Origin: Escherichia phage LQ5
Strand: one strand, 5' to 3'
Length of the DNA stretch: 64,000 nucleotides
Sequence record: OR677401
The number at the start of each line of letters is the position of its first letter. The stretch's first letter is position 1. Shown piece by piece: positions 2,351-58,534 of the stretch. The position numbers and the translations under genes were made by a program. Below the pieces are notes generated by a model, which worked only from the letters and a program-made list of their open reading frames with translations, made no database searches and was not told the DNA's origin.

Positions 2351-2617
2351 ATGGATATCAAATTATATTACGCTAAACACAAAGTTACAGGTATGGTTGT
2401 TGCCGCTATGTATGATGCATCAGGTGAAGGTGATGATGTTACTACAGAGTTATCTCTTTCTGAATGTAAATTTCTCCGTCCCTTAATCGCATCAAAGGAA
2501 GATTTAGAAAAGCTTATTGATGGAAAACTGGATAATGTTGACGGCATAGATATTCTTTATGACCTCCGCACGGCATTGTACAGGGGATTGATTGAGATAA
2601 AAGAGGTGGTGTTTTGA
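2351..2617 (+). CDS. hypothetical small protein
   Basis: 88-aa ORF directly after second copy of leader cassette (GAGGAG-N6-ATG). Confidence 0.45.
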   Translation: MDIKLYYAKHKVTGMVVAAMYDASGEGDDVTTELSLSECKFLRPLIASKEDLEKLIDGKLDNVDGIDILYDLRTALYRGLIEIKEVVF

Positions 2618-2762
2618 GTAGCAAAACGTGGTGCCTTATTTGGATGGCCTGTATCCCAGTGATTTGCGTGTGTTTTAGTTTATTGTTGTGGAAATTGGCA
2701 TAAATCAGTATACATCTCCATTAATCATGATATTATAGACCTATCAACTAATGGAGATGATT

Positions 2763-2873
2763 ATGAAAAACTTACTTAAAGCAATTTGGAACATGTTTGT
2801 GTTGTTAATGGTATTGAGCATTTTCCCAATCGTTTTTATGATTGACCATGTACGTGTATTCTTTAACTTCTGA
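2763..2873 (+). CDS. putative 36-aa hydrophobic membrane peptide
   Basis: ATG after GGAGATG SD in third leader cassette; translation MKNLLKAIWNMFVLLMVLSIFPIVFMIDHVRVFFNF is a single TM helix; below the 60-aa track cutoff. Confidence 0.3.
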   Translation: MKNLLKAIWNMFVLLMVLSIFPIVFMIDHVRVFFNF

Positions 2874-2883
2874 GGAAAATATT

Positions 2884-3096
2884 ATGAAACTTTTTAAAGA
2901 TGTGGTAGTCGGCGAGAGCTTTGTATTGCATAATGGCCAACAACTGATTCGCATTTCTCCTTTGCAAGTTGGGACCGAATTACAACCTGTTAATGCTACA
3001 GACCTTTATGATTCAACTAAGCGTTTTTGTGTAGGCCCTAGTGTGCAATGCCTTACTGTTGATGAACTGATGGCTATTTCTGTTGACGCTGAATAA
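2884..3096 (+). CDS. hypothetical small protein
   Basis: Track ORF 2842..3096; ATG at 2884 preceded by TGAGGAAAATATT SD motif. Confidence 0.4.
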   Translation: MKLFKDVVVGESFVLHNGQQLIRISPLQVGTELQPVNATDLYDSTKRFCVGPSVQCLTVDELMAISVDAE

Positions 3097-3106
3097 GGAA
3101 AATATT

Positions 3107-3451
3107 ATGTCTAAATTATTTTTTGGTAATCGCAACATTATGTTCTTTAAACAGATTAGCATGTCAGAAACATTTGATTTAAGTTATTCGGGCGACACAA
3201 AAGCTGTTAACCTTAAAAATTTAGCGTCTGCAGAATTTGCATTCTATCAGGACCCTGAAACTGGTTTCTACAAATTTATTAAGTTCCGCATGACTATGGA
3301 CCGCGATTATCGTGACGTTTATTATACAAGTTATGAAAGTGCTATCAATGCAATTCGCGAAGCTTATGGATTGGATTCGTTGTCTCTTGACCGCCTGTAT
3401 AATGCAAGCCTTTACACCAGCGGATTTATTTTAGAACAACTTCAAAAATAG
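3107..3451 (+). CDS. hypothetical protein
   Basis: Track ORF 3083..3451; ATG at 3107 preceded by AAGGAAAATATT. Confidence 0.4.
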   Translation: MSKLFFGNRNIMFFKQISMSETFDLSYSGDTKAVNLKNLASAEFAFYQDPETGFYKFIKFRMTMDRDYRDVYYTSYESAINAIREAYGLDSLSLDRLYNASLYTSGFILEQLQK

Positions 3452-3528
3452 TTTACAACCTCGAGAATCATGTTATAATGGTTCTCGTTGACTGGATAAC
3501 AAAACATTAATCTACTGAGGAAATTGAT

Positions 3529-3978
3529 ATGAATACTTATATGACTCGCCGTAACGTTCTGTCTGCTGGTGCTACTACTGTTGCTTATGTTAAGAACGGT
3601 GAATACCAAAATGGTAAACCTTCTAAAGAAATCTCTGCTCAGCCAGGCTTCTACTTCTTTGTTAAAGGTGGAGCTGATTCTCGTGTCGTAGCGGCTCGTT
3701 TTTATGTCGGTAATCAACGTTCGGCCCAAGGGCTCGACGGTATCGTGGCTAACATTCGTAAGAAACGTTCTCAATCAGCTCGCACTATGGCAGTGAACGG
3801 TGTTGTGTATGAAGTTCTTTATGTACCGGCTTCTAAGATGAAACCCCTGACTACAGGTTTTGGTAAGGGTCAAATTGCAATGGCTTTCACTCGTAATCAT
3901 AGTTCCGACCTCCAGACACTGGAAGAAATGAACCGTATGTTGGCTGATAACTTTAAATTCATCCTGCAGGCTTACTAA
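3529..3978 (+). CDS. ndd: Ndd nucleoid-disruption protein
   Basis: 149 aa; C-terminus ...[11 protein letters not shown]...[24 protein letters not shown]...[20 protein letters not shown] matches T4 Ndd as I recall it. Confidence 0.85.
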
Positions 3979-4055
3979 TGAGTAATTTCCATAACGAGCA
4001 TGTGATGCAGTTCTATCGTAACAATCTTAAAACTAAAGGCGTCTTCGGACGCTAA
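3978..4055 (+). CDS. stp: Stp peptide (suppressor of three-prime phosphatase; modulator of the EcoprrI/PrrC anticodon-nuclease system)
   Basis: 25-aa [28 protein letters not shown] overlapping the ndd stop (TAATG); essentially identical to T4 Stp. Confidence 0.8.
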
Positions 4056-4065
4056 TGAGGAAAAT

Positions 4066-4227
4066 ATGGTTATCCTAGTTTTTATTGAACTTATTATGGC
4101 TATAGTCTGTTCAGTTTGCTTCTTTTTAGGTGTGTGGGCCCCTGGTCCGATATTCTTAAGTTTTCTGCTTATTGGTTGGGTTCTTTCTACTTTTGTCGGT
4201 TTACTTAAGACGATTAAAAATGATTAA
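4066..4227 (+). CDS. small membrane protein, Ac-like by position
   Basis: 53-aa hydrophobic ORF (MVILVFIELIMAIVCSVCFFLGVW...) after hairpin + TAATGAGGAAAATATG; T4 has the 51-aa membrane protein Ac here. Confidence 0.4.
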   Translation: MVILVFIELIMAIVCSVCFFLGVWAPGPIFLSFLLIGWVLSTFVGLLKTIKND

Positions 4228-4360
4228 TAAAATCCTGGGCTACTCGTTAGCCCTTGCTGCTTTATTAGTAGCACTGTATTATGGAGTAATGTTCGGACTT
4301 ATCCAAGTTGTGCTTTTTATTTCCGATGTTATTATGGCTATTCATTCACTAGTATGGTAA
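4220..4360 (+). CDS. small membrane protein (52.1-like by position)
   Basis: Track ORF 4172..4360; ATG at 4220 overlaps upstream stop (ATGATTAA); hydrophobic MINKILGYSLALAALLVALYYGVMFGLIQVVLFI... Confidence 0.4.
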   Translation: MINKILGYSLALAALLVALYYGVMFGLIQVVLFISDVIMAIHSLVW

Positions 4361-4364
4361 AATT

Positions 4365-5693
4365 ATGGAATTAACATCTCGTGGTTTAAAAAGTATTATC
4401 GACAACGAAGCATTGGCTTATGCAATGTATACTGTCGAAAACCGAGCCATTCCAAATATGATTGATGGCTTTAAACCTGTACAACGTTTTGTAGTGGCTC
4501 GTTGTCTTGATATGGCTCGCGGTAATAAAGAAAAATTCCACAAACTGGCTTCTATCGCTGGTGGTGTAGCCGACCTCGGATATCACCACGGTGAAGGTTC
4601 TGCTCAGGAAGCAGGGGCTTTGATGGCTAACACATGGAACAACAACTATCCATTGTTAGACGGTCAAGGTAACTTCGGTTCTCGATTGGTTCAAAAGGCT
4701 GCAGCCTCTCGTTATATTTTTGCTCGTATCGGAAGTAACTTTGCAAAAGTTTATAAGGACACAGAATATGCTCCGGTTCATGCGGATGTTGAACATAAGC
4801 CACCGGCTTTTTATCTGCCTATTATTCCTACTGTTCTTCTTAATGGCGTTTCCGGTATTGCAACTGGTTATGCAACTAATATTCTTCCTCATAGTTTTGA
4901 TTCTGTTAAGAAAGCTGTACTGCAAGTTCTTCAGGAAAAACGAGTAACCAAACCCAAAGTGGCTTATCCTGAATTCCGTGGTGAAGTTGTTGAGATTGAA
5001 CCTGGTAGTTATGAGATTCGTGGAACGTATAAGTTCACATCTCGAACCCAAATGCATATCACGGAAATCCCATACAAATATGACCGTGAAACATATGTGG
5101 CTAAGGTATTAGACCCTCTGGAAGACAAAGGGTACATCACATATGATGATGACTGTGACGAGAACGGTTTTGGCTTCAAGGTTAAGATTCGTAAAGAATA
5201 CGAATTGCCTACCGAAGAAAACAAGAAGCATGAAAAAATCATGAAGGACTTCGGGTTAATCGAACGTCGTTCACAAAACCTGACCGTCATTAATGAAAAA
5301 GGTAAACTTAAGGTTTACGAAGATGCAGTTGAACTGATTCGTGATTTCGTTGAGGTCCGTAAGACCTTTGTACAAAAACGTATTGATGGTAAAATCATCG
5401 AAACCGAAGAAGCTTTTAAACTAGCATTGGCTAAAGCCACATTCATCAAAGATGTTATTGACGGGACTGTAGTTATCCAAGGTAAGACTCGTAAGGTTTT
5501 AACTGAGGAATTGGCTGGTAATAAAGTCTACGGCGAATACGCTGATAAACTGGTTGCAATGAACATTTTCCATATCACATCCGATGAAGCCAAGAAACTG
5601 GCCCTCGAAGCCAAGGCTAAGAAAGAAGAGCATCAATACTGGAAATCTACTGATGTGGTAACTGAGTATGTTAAAGATTTGGAGGCTCTATGA
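4365..5693 (+). CDS. 52: DNA topoisomerase II medium subunit gp52
   Basis: 442 aa, same length as T4 gp52; long identical stretches (KSIIDNEALAYAMYTVENRAIPNMIDGFKPVQRF..., ...GNFGSR.VQKAAASRYIFAR...). Confidence 0.92.
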   Translation: MELTSRGLKSIIDNEALAYAMYTVENRAIPNMIDGFKPVQRFVVARCLDMARGNKEKFHKLASIAGGVADLGYHHGEGSAQEAGALMANTWNNNYPLLDGQGNFGSRLVQKAAASRYIFARIGSNFAKVYKDTEYAPVHADVEHKPPAFYLPIIPTVLLNGVSGIATGYATNILPHSFDSVKKAVLQVLQEKRVTKPKVAYPEFRGEVVEIEPGSYEIRGTYKFTSRTQMHITEIPYKYDRETYVAKVLDPLEDKGYITYDDDCDENGFGFKVKIRKEYELPTEENKKHEKIMKDFGLIERRSQNLTVINEKGKLKVYEDAVELIRDFVEVRKTFVQKRIDGKIIETEEAFKLALAKATFIKDVIDGTVVIQGKTRKVLTEELAGNKVYGEYADKLVAMNIFHITSDEAKKLALEAKAKKEEHQYWKSTDVVTEYVKDLEAL

Positions 5694-5793
5694 GCCTTGG
5701 AGTCGAGTTCTTGTTACTCTGTATCTTTGCTGTTATTCTGGGCCTGGCGACAGGCTTAGCTATAGGTTTAATAGCAGCTCACTTTAAAAAGTA
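5690..5793 (+). CDS. putative 34-aa hydrophobic peptide
   Basis: ATG overlapping gp52 stop; MSLGVEFLLLCIFAVILGLATGLAIGLIAAHFKK; followed by terminator; exact ends +/-1 nt. Confidence 0.3.
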
Positions 5794-5816
5794 AGGAACC
5801 TTCGGGTTCCTTTTTT
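5794..5816 (+). terminator. rho-independent terminator (GGAACC-UUCG-GGUUCC + U7)
   Basis: perfect 6-bp GC-rich stem, UUCG tetraloop, T-run. Confidence 0.7.
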
Positions 5817-5833
5817 GGTTTAGTGAAAAAAGT

Positions 5834-5862
5834 GTTTACTTCTGCTTTAAACATGATACTAT
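5834..5862 (+). promoter_or_regulatory. T4-type early promoter (-35 GTTTAC, 17-nt spacer, TGATACTAT extended -10)
   Basis: gtttac at 5834-5839, tactat at 5857-5862; a TGCTTTA MotA-box-like heptamer also lies inside. Confidence 0.6.
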
Positions 5863-5900
5863 AGACCTATCAAAACAATAGAGTGAAATGGAGATACAAA

Positions 5901-6536
5901 ATGTCTAAAATTACTTATATCATCAAAGCTTCTGAAGGCGCCCTGAATGAAAAAACCGCTTCAATCTTAGTACATATCATCAAGCATAACTTCATCACTT
6001 CAGGCGAAGTCCGTGAAGCCCTGAGTGAGCAATTTAGTGCTGTGGTAGTTAACTCTAATATCGGTGTATTGATTAAGAAAGGATTCATCGAAAAATCTGG
6101 TGATGGACTAGTGGCTACAGGTGAAGCAATGGACCTAGTTCAAAAAGCTGCCGACCTGTTCGCTTCTGAAAATGCTCCAGAGATGTTGGAAAAACGTAAA
6201 ACGCGTAGTTCACGTGGTGTTACTCCTGAAATGGTAACACTGGCTGATGAAGTTAAAGCTTTATTAGAAGACCGTATCGAGATTCGTGAAATTGCTGAAA
6301 ACCGTAGCAACCTTGAAGTTCGATTCGCTAAACGTACCAACGGTATTCGTCAAATCGAAGTCCGTCGTGATGGAATGATGCGTATCTTCGGTTATAATAT
6401 GACTGATAAAGAAAAACAGGTGTTTACTTCCTTGAATCTTGATGTTAAGATTAAGACTGGTGGTAAGAATACTTATATCGACTTCCAAAACGTATCATCT
6501 GAAGTTATCAAAACCGTAACCAACGCAATTATCTGA
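5901..6536 (+). CDS. motA: MotA middle-transcription activator
   Basis: MSKITYIIKAS...LNEKTA.IL...NSNIGVLIKKG..EKSGDGL..TGEA matches T4 MotA N-terminal domain; track ORF 5883 uses an upstream non-ATG start. Confidence 0.88.
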   Translation: MSKITYIIKASEGALNEKTASILVHIIKHNFITSGEVREALSEQFSAVVVNSNIGVLIKKGFIEKSGDGLVATGEAMDLVQKAADLFASENAPEMLEKRKTRSSRGVTPEMVTLADEVKALLEDRIEIREIAENRSNLEVRFAKRTNGIRQIEVRRDGMMRIFGYNMTDKEKQVFTSLNLDVKIKTGGKNTYIDFQNVSSEVIKTVTNAII

Positions 6537-8070: not shown

Positions 8071-8226
8071 ATGAGTCATAACTTAGAGAATACAGTAACA
8101 GGCATGCGTACACGTGAGCAGGAGGGCTTTGAGGAATTCCTGGGAGCTGATTTTAAGTTCCAGGAACCAATAGAAGAGATGTATCAGGAATATGTTAAAA
8201 AGAACGAAGAACATGTTTACAATCCC
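8071..8226 (+). CDS. possible 51-aa acidic small protein
   Basis: ATG after AAGG; MSHNLENTVTGMRTREQEGFEEFLGADFKFQEPIEEMYQEYVKKNEEHVYNP; overlaps the asiA promoter at its 3' end. Confidence 0.25.
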
Positions 8227-8243
8227 TAAGGATATGTTAGTAT
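8215..8243 (+). promoter_or_regulatory. T4-type early promoter upstream of asiA
   Basis: gtttac 8215-8220, 17-nt spacer, tagtat -10. Confidence 0.55.
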
Positions 8244-33108: not shown

Positions 33109-33395
33109 TTAAATTATCTGTAGTAGTATTATCTATTGGCTTGTTAGTTGGATGTGCCCAGGACATTCCTGTAGTGCCTAAGCAACAACTGCATCCTTCA
33201 TGGCCACAACCTATTGCCGAACATAATGTTAAATGGCAGGTTAAGGTAATCGATGGTAAGGCCTGGGTTGGAATGCCATTTGAAGATTCCCAAGAACATC
33301 GTATTTGGTTGAATGACGTAAAAAGATATGTACAAGACCAGAAATCTATGTTATGTTATTATCGTTCCGGCCTAAAAGAGGAGAAGTGCAAATGA
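33105..33395 (+). CDS. o-spanin lipoprotein (Rz1-like; pseT.2 equivalent)
   Basis: 96 aa; signal peptide with lipobox LLVGC; ATGA overlap with i-spanin. Confidence 0.6.
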   Translation: MIKLSVVVLSIGLLVGCAQDIPVVPKQQLHPSWPQPIAEHNVKWQVKVIDGKAWVGMPFEDSQEHRIWLNDVKRYVQDQKSMLCYYRSGLKEEKCK

Positions 33396-33499
33396 TTGAG
33401 ACATGTGTTTGCGGTTGGGATGCCGTTAGATTTGGCGCTGCATTCTTTTGCTTTGGTATCGTGTTCAGCATGTGTATGCATGGTCTTTTCGGAAAGTAG
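33392..33499 (+). CDS. possible 35-aa hydrophobic peptide
   Basis: ATG overlapping the o-spanin stop; MIETCVCGWDAVRFGAAFFCFGIVFSMCMHGLFGK. Confidence 0.25.
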   Translation: MIETCVCGWDAVRFGAAFFCFGIVFSMCMHGLFGK

Positions 33500-33528
33500 T
33501 TTACAAACTCTTGGGAGCAGAGTATAAT
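33499..33528 (+). promoter_or_regulatory. early promoter with inverted repeat (GGAGCA/TGCTCC) bracketing -10 TATAAT
   Basis: gtttac, 18-nt spacer, tataat. Confidence 0.55.
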
Positions 33529-33562: not shown

Positions 33563-34766
<1,204 letters not shown>

Positions 34767-39090: not shown

Positions 39091-39252
39091 ATGGCTAAGA
39101 AAGAAGTTAAAGTAGTTGACGGTACCTCTAAACGCGCTGGTTACAAGCGTGCGTCCAACAAGCGTATCAATCAGGTAGTTGATAAGCTTCAAGCTCGTGC
39201 TCGTGCAGTATTGCGTGCAGATGCTGCTTGCTTTGGTAAGCCTCAGGCATAA
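39091..39252 (+). CDS. small basic protein (53 aa), unknown function
   Basis: ATG at 39091; MAKKEVKVVDGTSKRAGYKRASNKRINQVVDKLQARARAVLRADAACFGKPQA; immediately followed by a strong terminator; below track cutoff. Confidence 0.4.
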   Translation: MAKKEVKVVDGTSKRAGYKRASNKRINQVVDKLQARARAVLRADAACFGKPQA

Positions 39253-40186: not shown

Positions 40187-40474
40187 ATGTTTATGACCAC
40201 TTATTTTGATACTCGTAAAAATTTCTGTGAAGTTGTTTTCTCTAAAGCAGGTAAAGATGTTCCTGCCGACAAACAACCTACTCGTGAATCTATTAAGGCT
40301 TATGCCGATGTTGTATGCCCGGTAGAATTCCGTACTGTTAATGGTCGTGATACCCTAGCAATCACTAAGCTAAACCATGATATCAATATCGACCCAAGTG
40401 TCGCCCGTGAAGTCAATACCTCTGACATCTATGGTGGTAATGTTAAATCACATGGCTTTCAGATGAGGTTCTAA
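40187..40474 (+). CDS. hypothetical protein
   Basis: Track ORF 40154..40474; ATG after hairpin + TTTGAGGAAAATATT. Confidence 0.45.
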   Translation: MFMTTYFDTRKNFCEVVFSKAGKDVPADKQPTRESIKAYADVVCPVEFRTVNGRDTLAITKLNHDINIDPSVAREVNTSDIYGGNVKSHGFQMRF

Positions 40475-40668
40475 TGCAACTATTCTTATCACAAACTGTT
40501 CAGCTAAAAGGTGTAGGTATTCCTGGAATGATTTCAAAGGTTCTACCTGCTTTTAAATTAGGTAATGTTACTATTAAAGAAGCCTACACCGTCTTATGGG
40601 TCGATGGAACTGAAGACGTTCGCATGGGCGGTGAACTGTCTGTAATCAAATGTTTAAAGCGAGGATAA
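40474..40668 (+). CDS. hypothetical small protein
   Basis: 64-aa ORF, coupled start. Confidence 0.4.
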   Translation: MQLFLSQTVQLKGVGIPGMISKVLPAFKLGNVTIKEAYTVLWVDGTEDVRMGGELSVIKCLKRG

Positions 40669-40669
40669 T

Positions 40670-40882
40670 ATGTTTAAGAAATTGATTCAGAAATTATTAG
40701 GTACGGAAATGGTCGAAGTGACTTATCGTGTAACTGATTTATCTCCTGTGCATCCACAAGATGAACCATATACTAAAACAATTAAAATGCTGAAATCTGA
40801 TGGCGGATTATCTATTGAAGACCGTCTACCTGGTTATGGTCATTGGGCTGATGTCGAAATTATAAGTGTCAAAGATGTCTGA
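40670..40882 (+). CDS. hypothetical small protein
   Basis: 70-aa ORF with GAGGATAATATG. Confidence 0.4.
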   Translation: MFKKLIQKLLGTEMVEVTYRVTDLSPVHPQDEPYTKTIKMLKSDGGLSIEDRLPGYGHWADVEIISVKDV

Positions 40883-57802: not shown

Positions 57803-58237
57803 ATGAGTAAAGAGATTGAATATAAGTTGGAGTCGTTTCAAGATGCATTAGACGAGGATTTAAAGATTGATGGAACTCGTTTACAATATGAAGTACAGAA
57901 CAACGTTTTGCTGCACAGCAAATGGCTAAGGCTGTATACGAATTGTAAGAAAGAAATAATGAGATTAGAAATCCAGAAAAAGACCTCACTTAAGAAGCGA
58001 TTAGATTTCTACACGGGACGTGGAGAGCCTGGTGATGAGGTTTGTATGGACCAATATGAGAAATCTGAATTAAAGACCGTTATGGCTGCGGATTCTAGTG
58101 TAATTAAAATCGACACATCAATTCAGTATTGGGCTTTATTACAAGACTTTTGTAGTTCAGCACTTGATGCTATTAAGGCGCGTGGTTTTAACCTTAAGAC
58201 CATGCATGAGATGAGACAATTTGAGGCGGGCAAATGA
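57803..58237 (+). CDS. uvsY: UvsY recombination mediator
   Basis: Track ORF 57770; true start MSKEIEYK...; ...G.RLQYE..NNV.L.SKWL...EIMRLE.QKK..LK.RLD.Y.GRG...DE..MD.YEKSE.KTV.AAD..V.K.DTS.QYW..L.DFCS.ALDAIK.RGF matches T4 UvsY. Confidence 0.9.
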   Translation: MSKEIEYKLESFQDALDEDLKIDGTRLQYEVQNNVLLHSKWLRLYTNCKKEIMRLEIQKKTSLKKRLDFYTGRGEPGDEVCMDQYEKSELKTVMAADSSVIKIDTSIQYWALLQDFCSSALDAIKARGFNLKTMHEMRQFEAGK

Positions 58238-58366
58238 GTTATCGTAAACCAGTCATCAATAAATGCCCTAAACCATCTAAAGAGCGGATGGACGAACTCC
58301 AAAAATTCATTAATGCTGCTTTAGCAAGTAATAAATAGGTATGTAAGTTAAACTAAGGAGACAATC

Positions 58367-58534
58367 ATGTCAGATAAGATTTGCGTTGTCTGTAAAACTC
58401 CAATCGATGCTGCATTGGTTGTTGAAACAGAAAAAGGTCCGGTTCATCCGGGCTCATGCTATAATTACGTTCAAAGCCTGCCTGTTACGGAAAACACTGA
58501 AGAACAGCTGAACGAAACCCAATTACTACTTTAG
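58367..58534 (+). CDS. small Cys-containing protein (55 aa; uvsY.-2-like by position)
   Basis: ATG after AAGGAG; MSDKICVVCKTPIDAALVVETEKGPVHPGSCYNYVQSL... (CxxC...C). Confidence 0.35.
   Translation: MSDKICVVCKTPIDAALVVETEKGPVHPGSCYNYVQSLPVTENTEEQLNETQLLL

Follow-up and report, generated by a model that had tools for sequence, protein, structure and literature searches.

The stretch of DNA analyzed here is a 64,000-nucleotide (nt) window of Escherichia phage LQ5 (sequence record OR677401), and its subject is a set of very short hydrophobic open reading frames (ORFs) at gene junctions, above all the pair at 4066-4360 that precedes topoisomerase gene 52. By nucleotide identity the phage is a Dhakavirus, that is, a T4-like coliphage. 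The genomes of this genus (QL01, IME540 and Bp7) share 97-99% nucleotide identity with the window as the overall range, positions 2500-6000 share 97-98% with IME540, QL01, Bp7 and WG01, and the focal 309 nt share 99.4% with QL01. The plus strand carries, in order, denB, small ORFs, ndd, stp, a 53-amino acid (aa) ORF, a 46-aa ORF, gene 52, a 34-aa ORF, a terminator-like hairpin and motA (Table 1). The annotated T4 record has the order ndd, stp, ac, 52.1, 52, motA.1, motA.

A sequence-only reading of the window had described five short hydrophobic ORFs as small membrane-peptide genes of a T4-like phage. All five are present, with grand average of hydropathy (GRAVY) scores of 1.15-1.80, and PHROG families and T4 homologs agree with the description. 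Four of the five coordinate pairs were correct, while the fifth, 5690-5793, stops one base short of the true end at 5794. A start inside the stop codon of the upstream gene, described as typical, was found at 4220 (an 8-nt overlap with the 53-aa ORF, ATGATTAA) and at 5690 and 33392 (ATGA overlaps); it was not found at 4066, which follows stp after a 10-nt gap, or at 2763, which follows a promoter-like site. Those ORFs said to fall below annotation cutoffs do not: each of the five falls in a PHROG family and is annotated, though patchily, in several near-identical genomes. A sixth such ORF, at 2614-2703, was missing from that reading.

Table 1. Coordinates of the genes, ORFs and signals discussed in the text.
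Feature	Position	Strand	Basis or remark
ndd.6-like 29-aa single-helix membrane peptide, TTG start	2614..2703	+	phrog_8851
Promoter-like site ahead of ndd.4	2709-2736	+	promoter-like sequence
ndd.4 homolog, 36 aa, one transmembrane helix, lysine-rich N-terminus	2763..2873	+	phrog_3098
Early-promoter-like site TTTACA-16-TATAAT with upstream TG, ahead of ndd	3452..3479	+	11/12 consensus; consensus match only
ndd	3529-3978	+	
stp, 25 aa, activator of host PrrC anticodon nuclease	3978..4055	+	Pfam PF08133
53-aa two-helix hairpin membrane protein, "type B"	4066..4227	+	phrog_9347, AlphaFold2
gp52.1, 46 aa, Pfam DUF7396, single long hydrophobic helix	4220..4360	+	T4 orthology, PF24129
Gene 52, topoisomerase II medium subunit	4365..5693	+	81% amino acid identity to T4 gp52
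34-aa single-transmembrane peptide, G18xxxG22xxxG26, C-terminal HFKK	5690..5794	+	phrog_16377
Intrinsic-terminator-like hairpin AAGGAACC-TTCG-GGTTCCTT with T-run	5793..5812	+	overlaps 34-aa ORF stop
motA	5883/5895-6536	+	single intact ORF
35-aa Cys/Gly-rich single-transmembrane peptide	33392..33499	+	phrog_23289
Early-promoter-like site TTTACA-17-TATAAT, directly after the 35-aa ORF	33500..33528	+	consensus match only

Hydrophobicity alone is weak evidence for such genes, because 81 of the 546 ORFs of 24-74 aa in the six frames of the window (15%), out-of-frame ORFs inside gene 52 included, look transmembrane (TM) by a simple criterion. The ORFs could accordingly be read as chance open frames, in which T-rich codons of an AT-rich genome give hydrophobic "peptides" that are never translated, and it would fit this reading that the T4 counterparts are entered as NA in one omics layer, probably protein. 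Comparison with relatives contradicts it. Purifying selection acts in exactly the proposed frames, with pooled ratios of nonsynonymous to synonymous substitution rates (dN/dS) of 0.19 for 52.1, 0.36 for the 53-aa ORF, 0.26 for the 34-aa ORF, 0.15 for the 35-aa ORF, 0.20 for ndd.4 and 0.34 for the ndd.6-like ORF, and the variable sites are concentrated at third codon positions. Each of the five ORFs has a full-length PHROG match (E = 1e-15 to 1e-26). The frames survive at 33-70% amino acid identity across genera, with values down to 33-55% in other genera, and the 35-aa frame also survives across phage families; insertions or deletions of whole codons (34 vs 35 aa) are tolerated. Shine-Dalgarno (SD) motifs are conserved upstream of 2614, 2763, 4066, 5690 and 33392, and gaps between genes are filled precisely, with ATGA-type overlaps. 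The chance reading is thus extremely improbable, and was ruled out because of the PHROG matches, the codon-level selection with its low dN/dS, and the SD motifs conserved in relatives. Codon-level conservation is decisive for coding status. All of these ORFs are already known, in the sense that they are annotated in sister genomes and represented in family databases.

The 46-aa product of 4220-4360 is gp52.1. The sequence-only reading had named T4 52.1 as a positional counterpart of one of its ORFs, and this ORF proves to be a true ortholog: 44 of 46 residues are identical (96%), the differences are N3 for K3 and I41 for L41, and neither is material. The protein matches Pfam DUF7396 (PF24129) over residues 1-46 of 46 with 78 bits (cut-off 27) and phrog_3595 with E = 1.4e-25, and every invariant column of the family, comprising the core LYYGV.FGL..VVLFISDVI and a terminal W, is present. 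Synteny agrees, as the gene lies directly upstream of gene 52 and overlaps the preceding small membrane ORF, with the same 8-nt overlap upstream and the same 4-nt distance to gene 52 as in T4. If the ORF at 5690-5793 was the one intended as "52.1", that assignment was wrong, since T4 52.1 is upstream of gene 52 and motA.1 downstream.

DNA matches to 52.1 were found in 587 phage records. Against Tequatrovirus, the ratio of nonsynonymous (pN) to synonymous (pS) differences per site is 0.10-0.15, and pN is 0.05-0.07 for 52.1, while the same pairs of genomes give 0.127 for topoisomerase gp52. By this sequence measure, 52.1 is under tighter constraint than the neighboring topoisomerase subunit. AlphaFold2 predicts one continuous helix at residues 2-45, with a confidence score (pLDDT) of 96.7. 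A candidate interaction stripe on one helix face (G22-Q29-D36-S43) was dropped, as the conservation moment at 100 degrees was not above that of shuffled sequences (P = 0.75); conservation instead forms a contiguous block at residues 19-38. A search of the 52.1 profile against PDB sequences gave no matches. The DUF7396 family is narrow: the largest protein collections contain 14 clusters of it at 90% identity and, by an exhaustive HMMER search of 1.84 billion representative proteins, 9 representatives at 50%. Members that are named or lie on long contigs come from T4-like phages, and so do the representatives that could be placed: one is truncated, others are called as fusions with upstream sequence, and one is a deletion fusion of Ndd to 52.1. 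This last protein (P0013, from an ENA metagenome) is 47 aa long and joins an Ndd N-terminus (MKYMTVTDLNNAGAT) to gp52.1 residues 15-46. It apparently represents a natural deletion that spans ndd and the start of 52.1 and is loosely comparable to GT7 of T4.

The 53-aa ORF belongs to a different family, here called type B. Its sole PHROG match is phrog_9347 (E = 1.5e-26, residues 1-53 of 53), and the hairpin pattern F6..G22.W.P26 conserved in the type B alignment is present. The sequence-only reading had listed this product among single-TM peptides. This does not hold, because both hydropathy and AlphaFold2 indicate a two-helix hairpin: the protein has a 39-residue uncharged stretch with a break at WAPGP, and the predicted helices span residues 2-24 and 28-52. 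The family was found in 79 phage records from Dhakavirus, Gaprivervirus, Kanagawavirus, Kagamiyamavirus, Winklervirus and a few Tequatrovirus. A search of 5.8 billion proteins yielded 24 clusters, none of which has a Pfam domain; those with source names or long contigs come from T4-like phages of ~170 kb. Against the PDB, the type B profile retrieved only designed "Pizza" beta-propeller repeats, and this match was rejected as a repeat-summing artifact, no single stretch of it passing.

The two genes appear to be linked in translation. The 53-aa ORF has a conserved GAGG SD motif. For the start of 52.1, 15 distinct upstream contexts drawn from six genera were compared, and 13 of them lack an SD whichever ORF comes first; in every genome examined a small membrane ORF lies directly before 52.1, either overlapping it or ending right next to it. 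This combination of a missing SD with constant overlap or abutment points to termination-reinitiation coupling, and the simplest reading, which we infer from the arrangement of the genes, is that synthesis of gp52.1 requires synthesis of the membrane protein encoded ahead of it. The early-promoter-like site at 3452..3479 is likely the start of a transcription unit comprising ndd, stp, the 53-aa ORF, 52.1, gene 52 and the 34-aa ORF, and the terminator-like hairpin at 5793..5812 marks its end.

The interval between stp and 52.1 is variable. In a sliding comparison of the window with T4-type phages, the 3' end of ndd together with stp shows 90-94% nucleotide identity; the value drops to 38-44% within the interval and is back at 81-84% in 52.1. 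The conserved left flank is stp, whose product matches PF08133 with 72 bits (cut-off 25); the gene shares 96% amino acid and 93% nucleotide identity with T4 stp. Tequatrovirus KIT03 carries a type B gene with 86-89% identity to that of the window, and its pS of 0.30 is well below the 0.65-0.70 of the flanking ndd and gene 52, which indicates that the module was exchanged horizontally. In EAWsc9, a perfect 47-nt duplicate of the 52.1 start (1052-1098 vs 1307-1353 of the locus extract) has a type B gene on one side and an Ac-type gene on the other and yields a truncated 22-aa "52.1" stub (MIKKILGYSLALAACSAVMVSS). This duplicate is a recombination scar and implicates the 5' end of 52.1 in crossover.

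Depending on the phage, two to four small membrane genes occupy the interval from ndd to gene 52. Many relatives have a 57-59 aa two-helix, Cys-containing membrane ORF (MRTFFVMGYLFVLALLVVTG...CKMCGIYE) between ndd and stp; it was seen in loci L012, L018, L021 and L027-L030 and is absent from the window. Kanagawavirus phages encode an extra 43-aa family between type B and 52.1. Swapping of small genes is known from the promoter-stem-loop (PeSL) cassettes, in which small ORFs such as ndd.4 and ndd.5 are exchanged among the hyperplastic regions of T4-like phages (Comeau, Arbiol and Krisch 2014, PMC4122927). Early-promoter-like sites likewise flank the window's small ORFs. The stp-52.1 slot differs from these cassettes in that its apparent arms, to judge by the EAWsc9 duplicate, are coding sequence (stp and the 5' end of 52.1) and probably not promoter-stem-loops.

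We conclude, with a probability of roughly 75%, that these ORFs are genuine, translated early accessory genes of Dhakavirus, and that their products are tiny inner-membrane proteins that probably act on host membrane proteins. The focal pair would form a two-gene module directly upstream of gene 52. Its first gene, the 53-aa hairpin with its own SD, would belong to a set of two or more unrelated families, Ac-type and type B among them, that replace one another by recombination in the stp-52.1 slot, and its second, the near-invariant gp52.1, would most likely be made by termination-reinitiation on whichever small membrane ORF precedes it. As the peptides have no catalytic capacity, they would act by binding, and probably bind membrane-embedded host proteins so as to alter envelope transport or permeability during infection.

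The precedent for this binding model, by analogy, is T4 Ac. Expression of Ac in E. coli sensitizes the cells to acriflavine by ~3 logs and also to ampicillin, while deletions and point mutations of ac confer acriflavine resistance (bioRxiv 10.1101/2025.06.30.662393). The authors of that preprint hypothesize that Ac blocks AcrAB-TolC efflux, and a PNAS paper of 2026 takes it over as an assumption. A host peptide acts on the same pump: E. coli AcrZ (49 aa), a small hydrophobic helical protein, works purely by binding the transmembrane region of AcrB and so alters substrate handling (PMC7267776). AcrZ has no sequence relationship to the window's peptides and may be taken as a mechanistic analog only; it enhances resistance, whereas Ac sensitizes.

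On laboratory hosts the T4 counterparts are dispensable. A genome-wide CRISPRi-ART screen of T4, which knocks genes down at translation, scored gene 52 as "Fit" and 52.1, ac, stp, motA.1, ndd and ndd.1-6 as "Not Fit", and T4 phages with a GT7-type deletion, which removes ac through rIIB plus the first 31 codons of 52.1, are viable. The HIDEN-SEQ preprint does not mention these small genes. Because of this dispensability, any benefit of the genes would be conditional on host or environment.

Several observations weigh against the proposed mode of action, or at least against its more specific forms. No interaction surface can be named on gp52.1, because its conservation is blockwise. The protein is nearly the same in T4, where it follows an Ac-type gene, and in the window, where it follows type B; it does not co-vary with its partner, which disfavors a specific complex of the two proteins. 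In a T4 transcriptome and proteome study, one table column classes 52.1, ac, stp, motA.1, ndd.4 and ndd.6 as "early" while its companion column gives NA, and these genes do not appear in the table of genes classified in both the RNA and protein layers. This likely means an early transcript with the protein undetected, the column headers being unconfirmed. The AcrAB-TolC model for Ac is the hypothesis of one preprint. The functional analogy between the 53-aa protein and Ac is in turn weak, because the two families are unrelated.

This last point bears on the positional counterpart of T4 ac that the sequence-only reading had named. The ORF at 4066-4227 does occupy the position of ac between stp and 52.1, and could be a diverged Ac ortholog doing the same job, acridine accumulation via a block of efflux. 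Both proteins are of similar length (51 aa for Ac vs 53 aa), both are two-helix hairpins whose genes overlap 52.1, and both end in "ND". The likeness stops short of homology, however. The two belong to separate families, phrog_9347 for the 53-aa ORF and phrog_2501 for Ac, and when alignments of the Ac-type and type B proteins from several genera were compared profile to profile, hhalign returned a probability of 2.4% (E = 0.019, 17 columns). The Ac-type loop motif TGE(T/S)SV(F/I)SQA..QG is absent from the type B alignment, including G38, the residue whose substitution G38R confers acridine resistance (bioRxiv 10.1101/2025.06.30.662393). The two types also occur together as neighbors, in the Dhakavirus phages JS98 and IME281, in EcS1 (Kagamiyamavirus), in Gravdalen (Winklervirus) and in EAWsc9 (Gaprivervirus). 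The C-terminal "ND*" common to both follows of necessity from their 8-nt overlap with the start of 52.1, which is conserved. No Ac-type gene was detected anywhere in the 64-kb window: tblastn with the Ac-type, MotA.1, ndd.2, ndd.2a, ndd.3, ndd.5, 57-aa and 43-aa families gave only noise, with best E values of about 0.04-0.5. On these comparisons the ac correspondence is positional only and the 53-aa ORF is not homologous to Ac, so that orthology with a shared job is improbable; the two proteins may be functional analogs without homology.

Other roles can be proposed for the peptides as a group or for gp52.1 alone. Small size and extreme hydrophobicity would suit membrane-damaging toxins, superinfection-exclusion factors or lysis-timing modulators, as would the glycine-zipper-like GxxxGxxxG motif of the 34-aa peptide, which is kept in a divergent Gaprivervirus variant, and the location of the 35-aa ORF directly after the spanin genes pseT.3 and pseT.2. 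Set against this, the homolog of the 35-aa ORF in Kuravirus NJ01 has no lysis-gene annotation nearby, and T4 Ac expressed without drug leaves colony counts nearly unchanged (1.5e9 vs 2.3e9; bioRxiv 10.1101/2025.06.30.662393). When the T4 counterparts are knocked down, neither fitness nor plaques are affected, and no peptide matches imm, sp, rI or rIII, the known T4 exclusion and lysis-inhibition genes, which are located in other parts of the genome. A strong toxic or essential role of the peptides finds no support in the T4 data, and we consider toxicity, exclusion or lysis timing unlikely explanations. A still less likely role for gp52.1 is service to gene 52, either as a translated leader that brings ribosomes to a weakly initiated gene 52 or as a membrane anchor for the T4-type topoisomerase. 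All genomes examined do have 52.1 directly before gene 52, the two being 1-8 nt apart, and mutations in the T4 topoisomerase genes 39 and 60 are also linked to acridine resistance (bioRxiv 10.1101/2025.06.30.662393). The leader idea is weakened by the strong selection on the amino acid sequence of 52.1 and by its "Not Fit" score beside the "Fit" score of gene 52, and loss of the first 31 codons in GT7 is not lethal. Accessory proteins that probably act on host membrane proteins remain our preferred reading.

An extension of this reading, which we put forward as speculative and rather unlikely, is that the stp-52.1 interval acts as a socket exchanging unrelated two-helix proteins that are co-translated with gp52.1 by obligatory coupling, the whole forming a membrane module that disables an envelope machine of the host; the 35-aa peptide described below would be similarly portable. 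If this were true, the swapped types would be Ac-type, type B and the 43-aa Kanagawavirus type, and the homology arms would be stp and the first ~45 nt of 52.1. A constant gp52.1 would then work with a variable, host-tuned partner on a target such as a resistance-nodulation-division (RND) efflux pump.

The 34-aa ORF follows gene 52, overlaps its stop with ATGA, and has a conserved GGAGG SD. Compared with IME281 it shows 6 synonymous and 0 nonsynonymous differences, and DNA matches covering >=80% of the query were found in 54 phage records. T4 MotA.1 holds the equivalent place, with an overlap of the stop of gene 52, and closes the series of small Gly-rich hydrophobic ORFs that precede the motA promoter. 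The two differ in family (phrog_16377 for the 34-aa ORF vs phrog_3487 for MotA.1), in length (34 vs 49 aa) and in the GxxxGxxxG motif of the 34-aa ORF, and MotA.1 gave only noise in tblastn against the window. The Bp7 copy of the adjacent motA (4224-4823 of the locus extract) is annotated as two consecutive coding sequences, which could reflect a frameshift or a sequencing error.

The 35-aa ORF takes the place of T4 pseT.1. It is flanked by the o-spanin gene pseT.2, whose end it overlaps with ATGA behind an AGGAG SD, and by the ORF that follows. It matches phrog_23289 over its full length (E = 1.5e-15) and carries the pattern M.E.C..G.D...FCFGI..S.C..G.FGK of the family alignment. Compared with VR5 it shows 10 synonymous and 0 nonsynonymous differences. 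The family was found in 86 phage records, including the unrelated Kuravirus podophages NJ01 and 172-1. In NJ01, an unannotated 34-aa homolog with 74% amino acid identity (3501-3605 of the locus extract) lies among small hypothetical ORFs, and DNA similarity with the window is confined to the ORF (76 nt, 82% identity). In the Kuravirus comparison pS is 0.69, near saturation, and pN is 0.16. On this distribution the 35-aa gene behaves as a portable, stand-alone gene. A link to lysis via the adjacent spanin was considered and rejected: because the neighbors of the Kuravirus copy are small hypothetical ORFs, with nothing annotated for lysis close by, and the similarity does not extend beyond the ORF, the adjacency is probably incidental. 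The next ORF downstream starts at 33527 or 33563 and ends at 33862 (111 or 99 aa); sister Dhakaviruses have a different ORF of 160-172 aa there, and T4 has neither.

The two remaining hydrophobic ORFs lie in the denB-ndd hyperplastic region, as do their T4 homologs Ndd.4 and Ndd.6, with which they share 41-52% amino acid identity. The ORF at 2763 matches phrog_3098 with E = 5.2e-21 and is annotated as Ndd.4 in IME540; its ATG has a GGAG SD 6 nt upstream, and an alternative ATG at 2751 has none. The ndd.6-like ORF, downstream of denB, matches phrog_8851 with E = 2.6e-16. Its TTG start, which sets it apart from T4 ndd.6, overlaps the upstream stop and has a strong GAGGTG SD, while relatives such as JS98 have ATG at this start codon and no SD. 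This pattern looks like compensation between start codon and SD strength. By tblastn, the window lacks counterparts of T4 ndd.2, ndd.2a, ndd.3 and ndd.5.

Elsewhere in the window, further plus-strand ORFs of 34-70 aa fill gaps between genes and are not hydrophobic (8071-8229, 39091-39252, 40474-40668, 40670-40882, 58234-58338 and 58367-58534); one of these is acidic, one is basic, and one has CxxC-like cysteines.

The practical value of these results lies mainly in annotation. JS98 is annotated without the 53-aa ORF (1811-1972 of the locus extract), VR20 without 52.1 (1811-1951 of the locus extract), IME540 without the 35-aa ORF (1201-1308 of the locus extract) and NJ01 without its copy, and Bp7 labels the 4066-type and 4220-type ORFs alike as "similar to 52.1". 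The label "ac" should not be moved to Dhakavirus by position. While none of this would surprise a T4 specialist, the analysis adds the correction concerning ac, the sixth ORF, the coupling pattern of 52.1, the EAWsc9 scar, and the occurrence of the 35-aa gene in more than one phage family. Constrained yet dispensable in the laboratory, gp52.1 is a reasonable target for studies of envelope remodeling by T-even phages, or of the ways in which phage proteins sensitize bacteria to intercalators and antibiotics.

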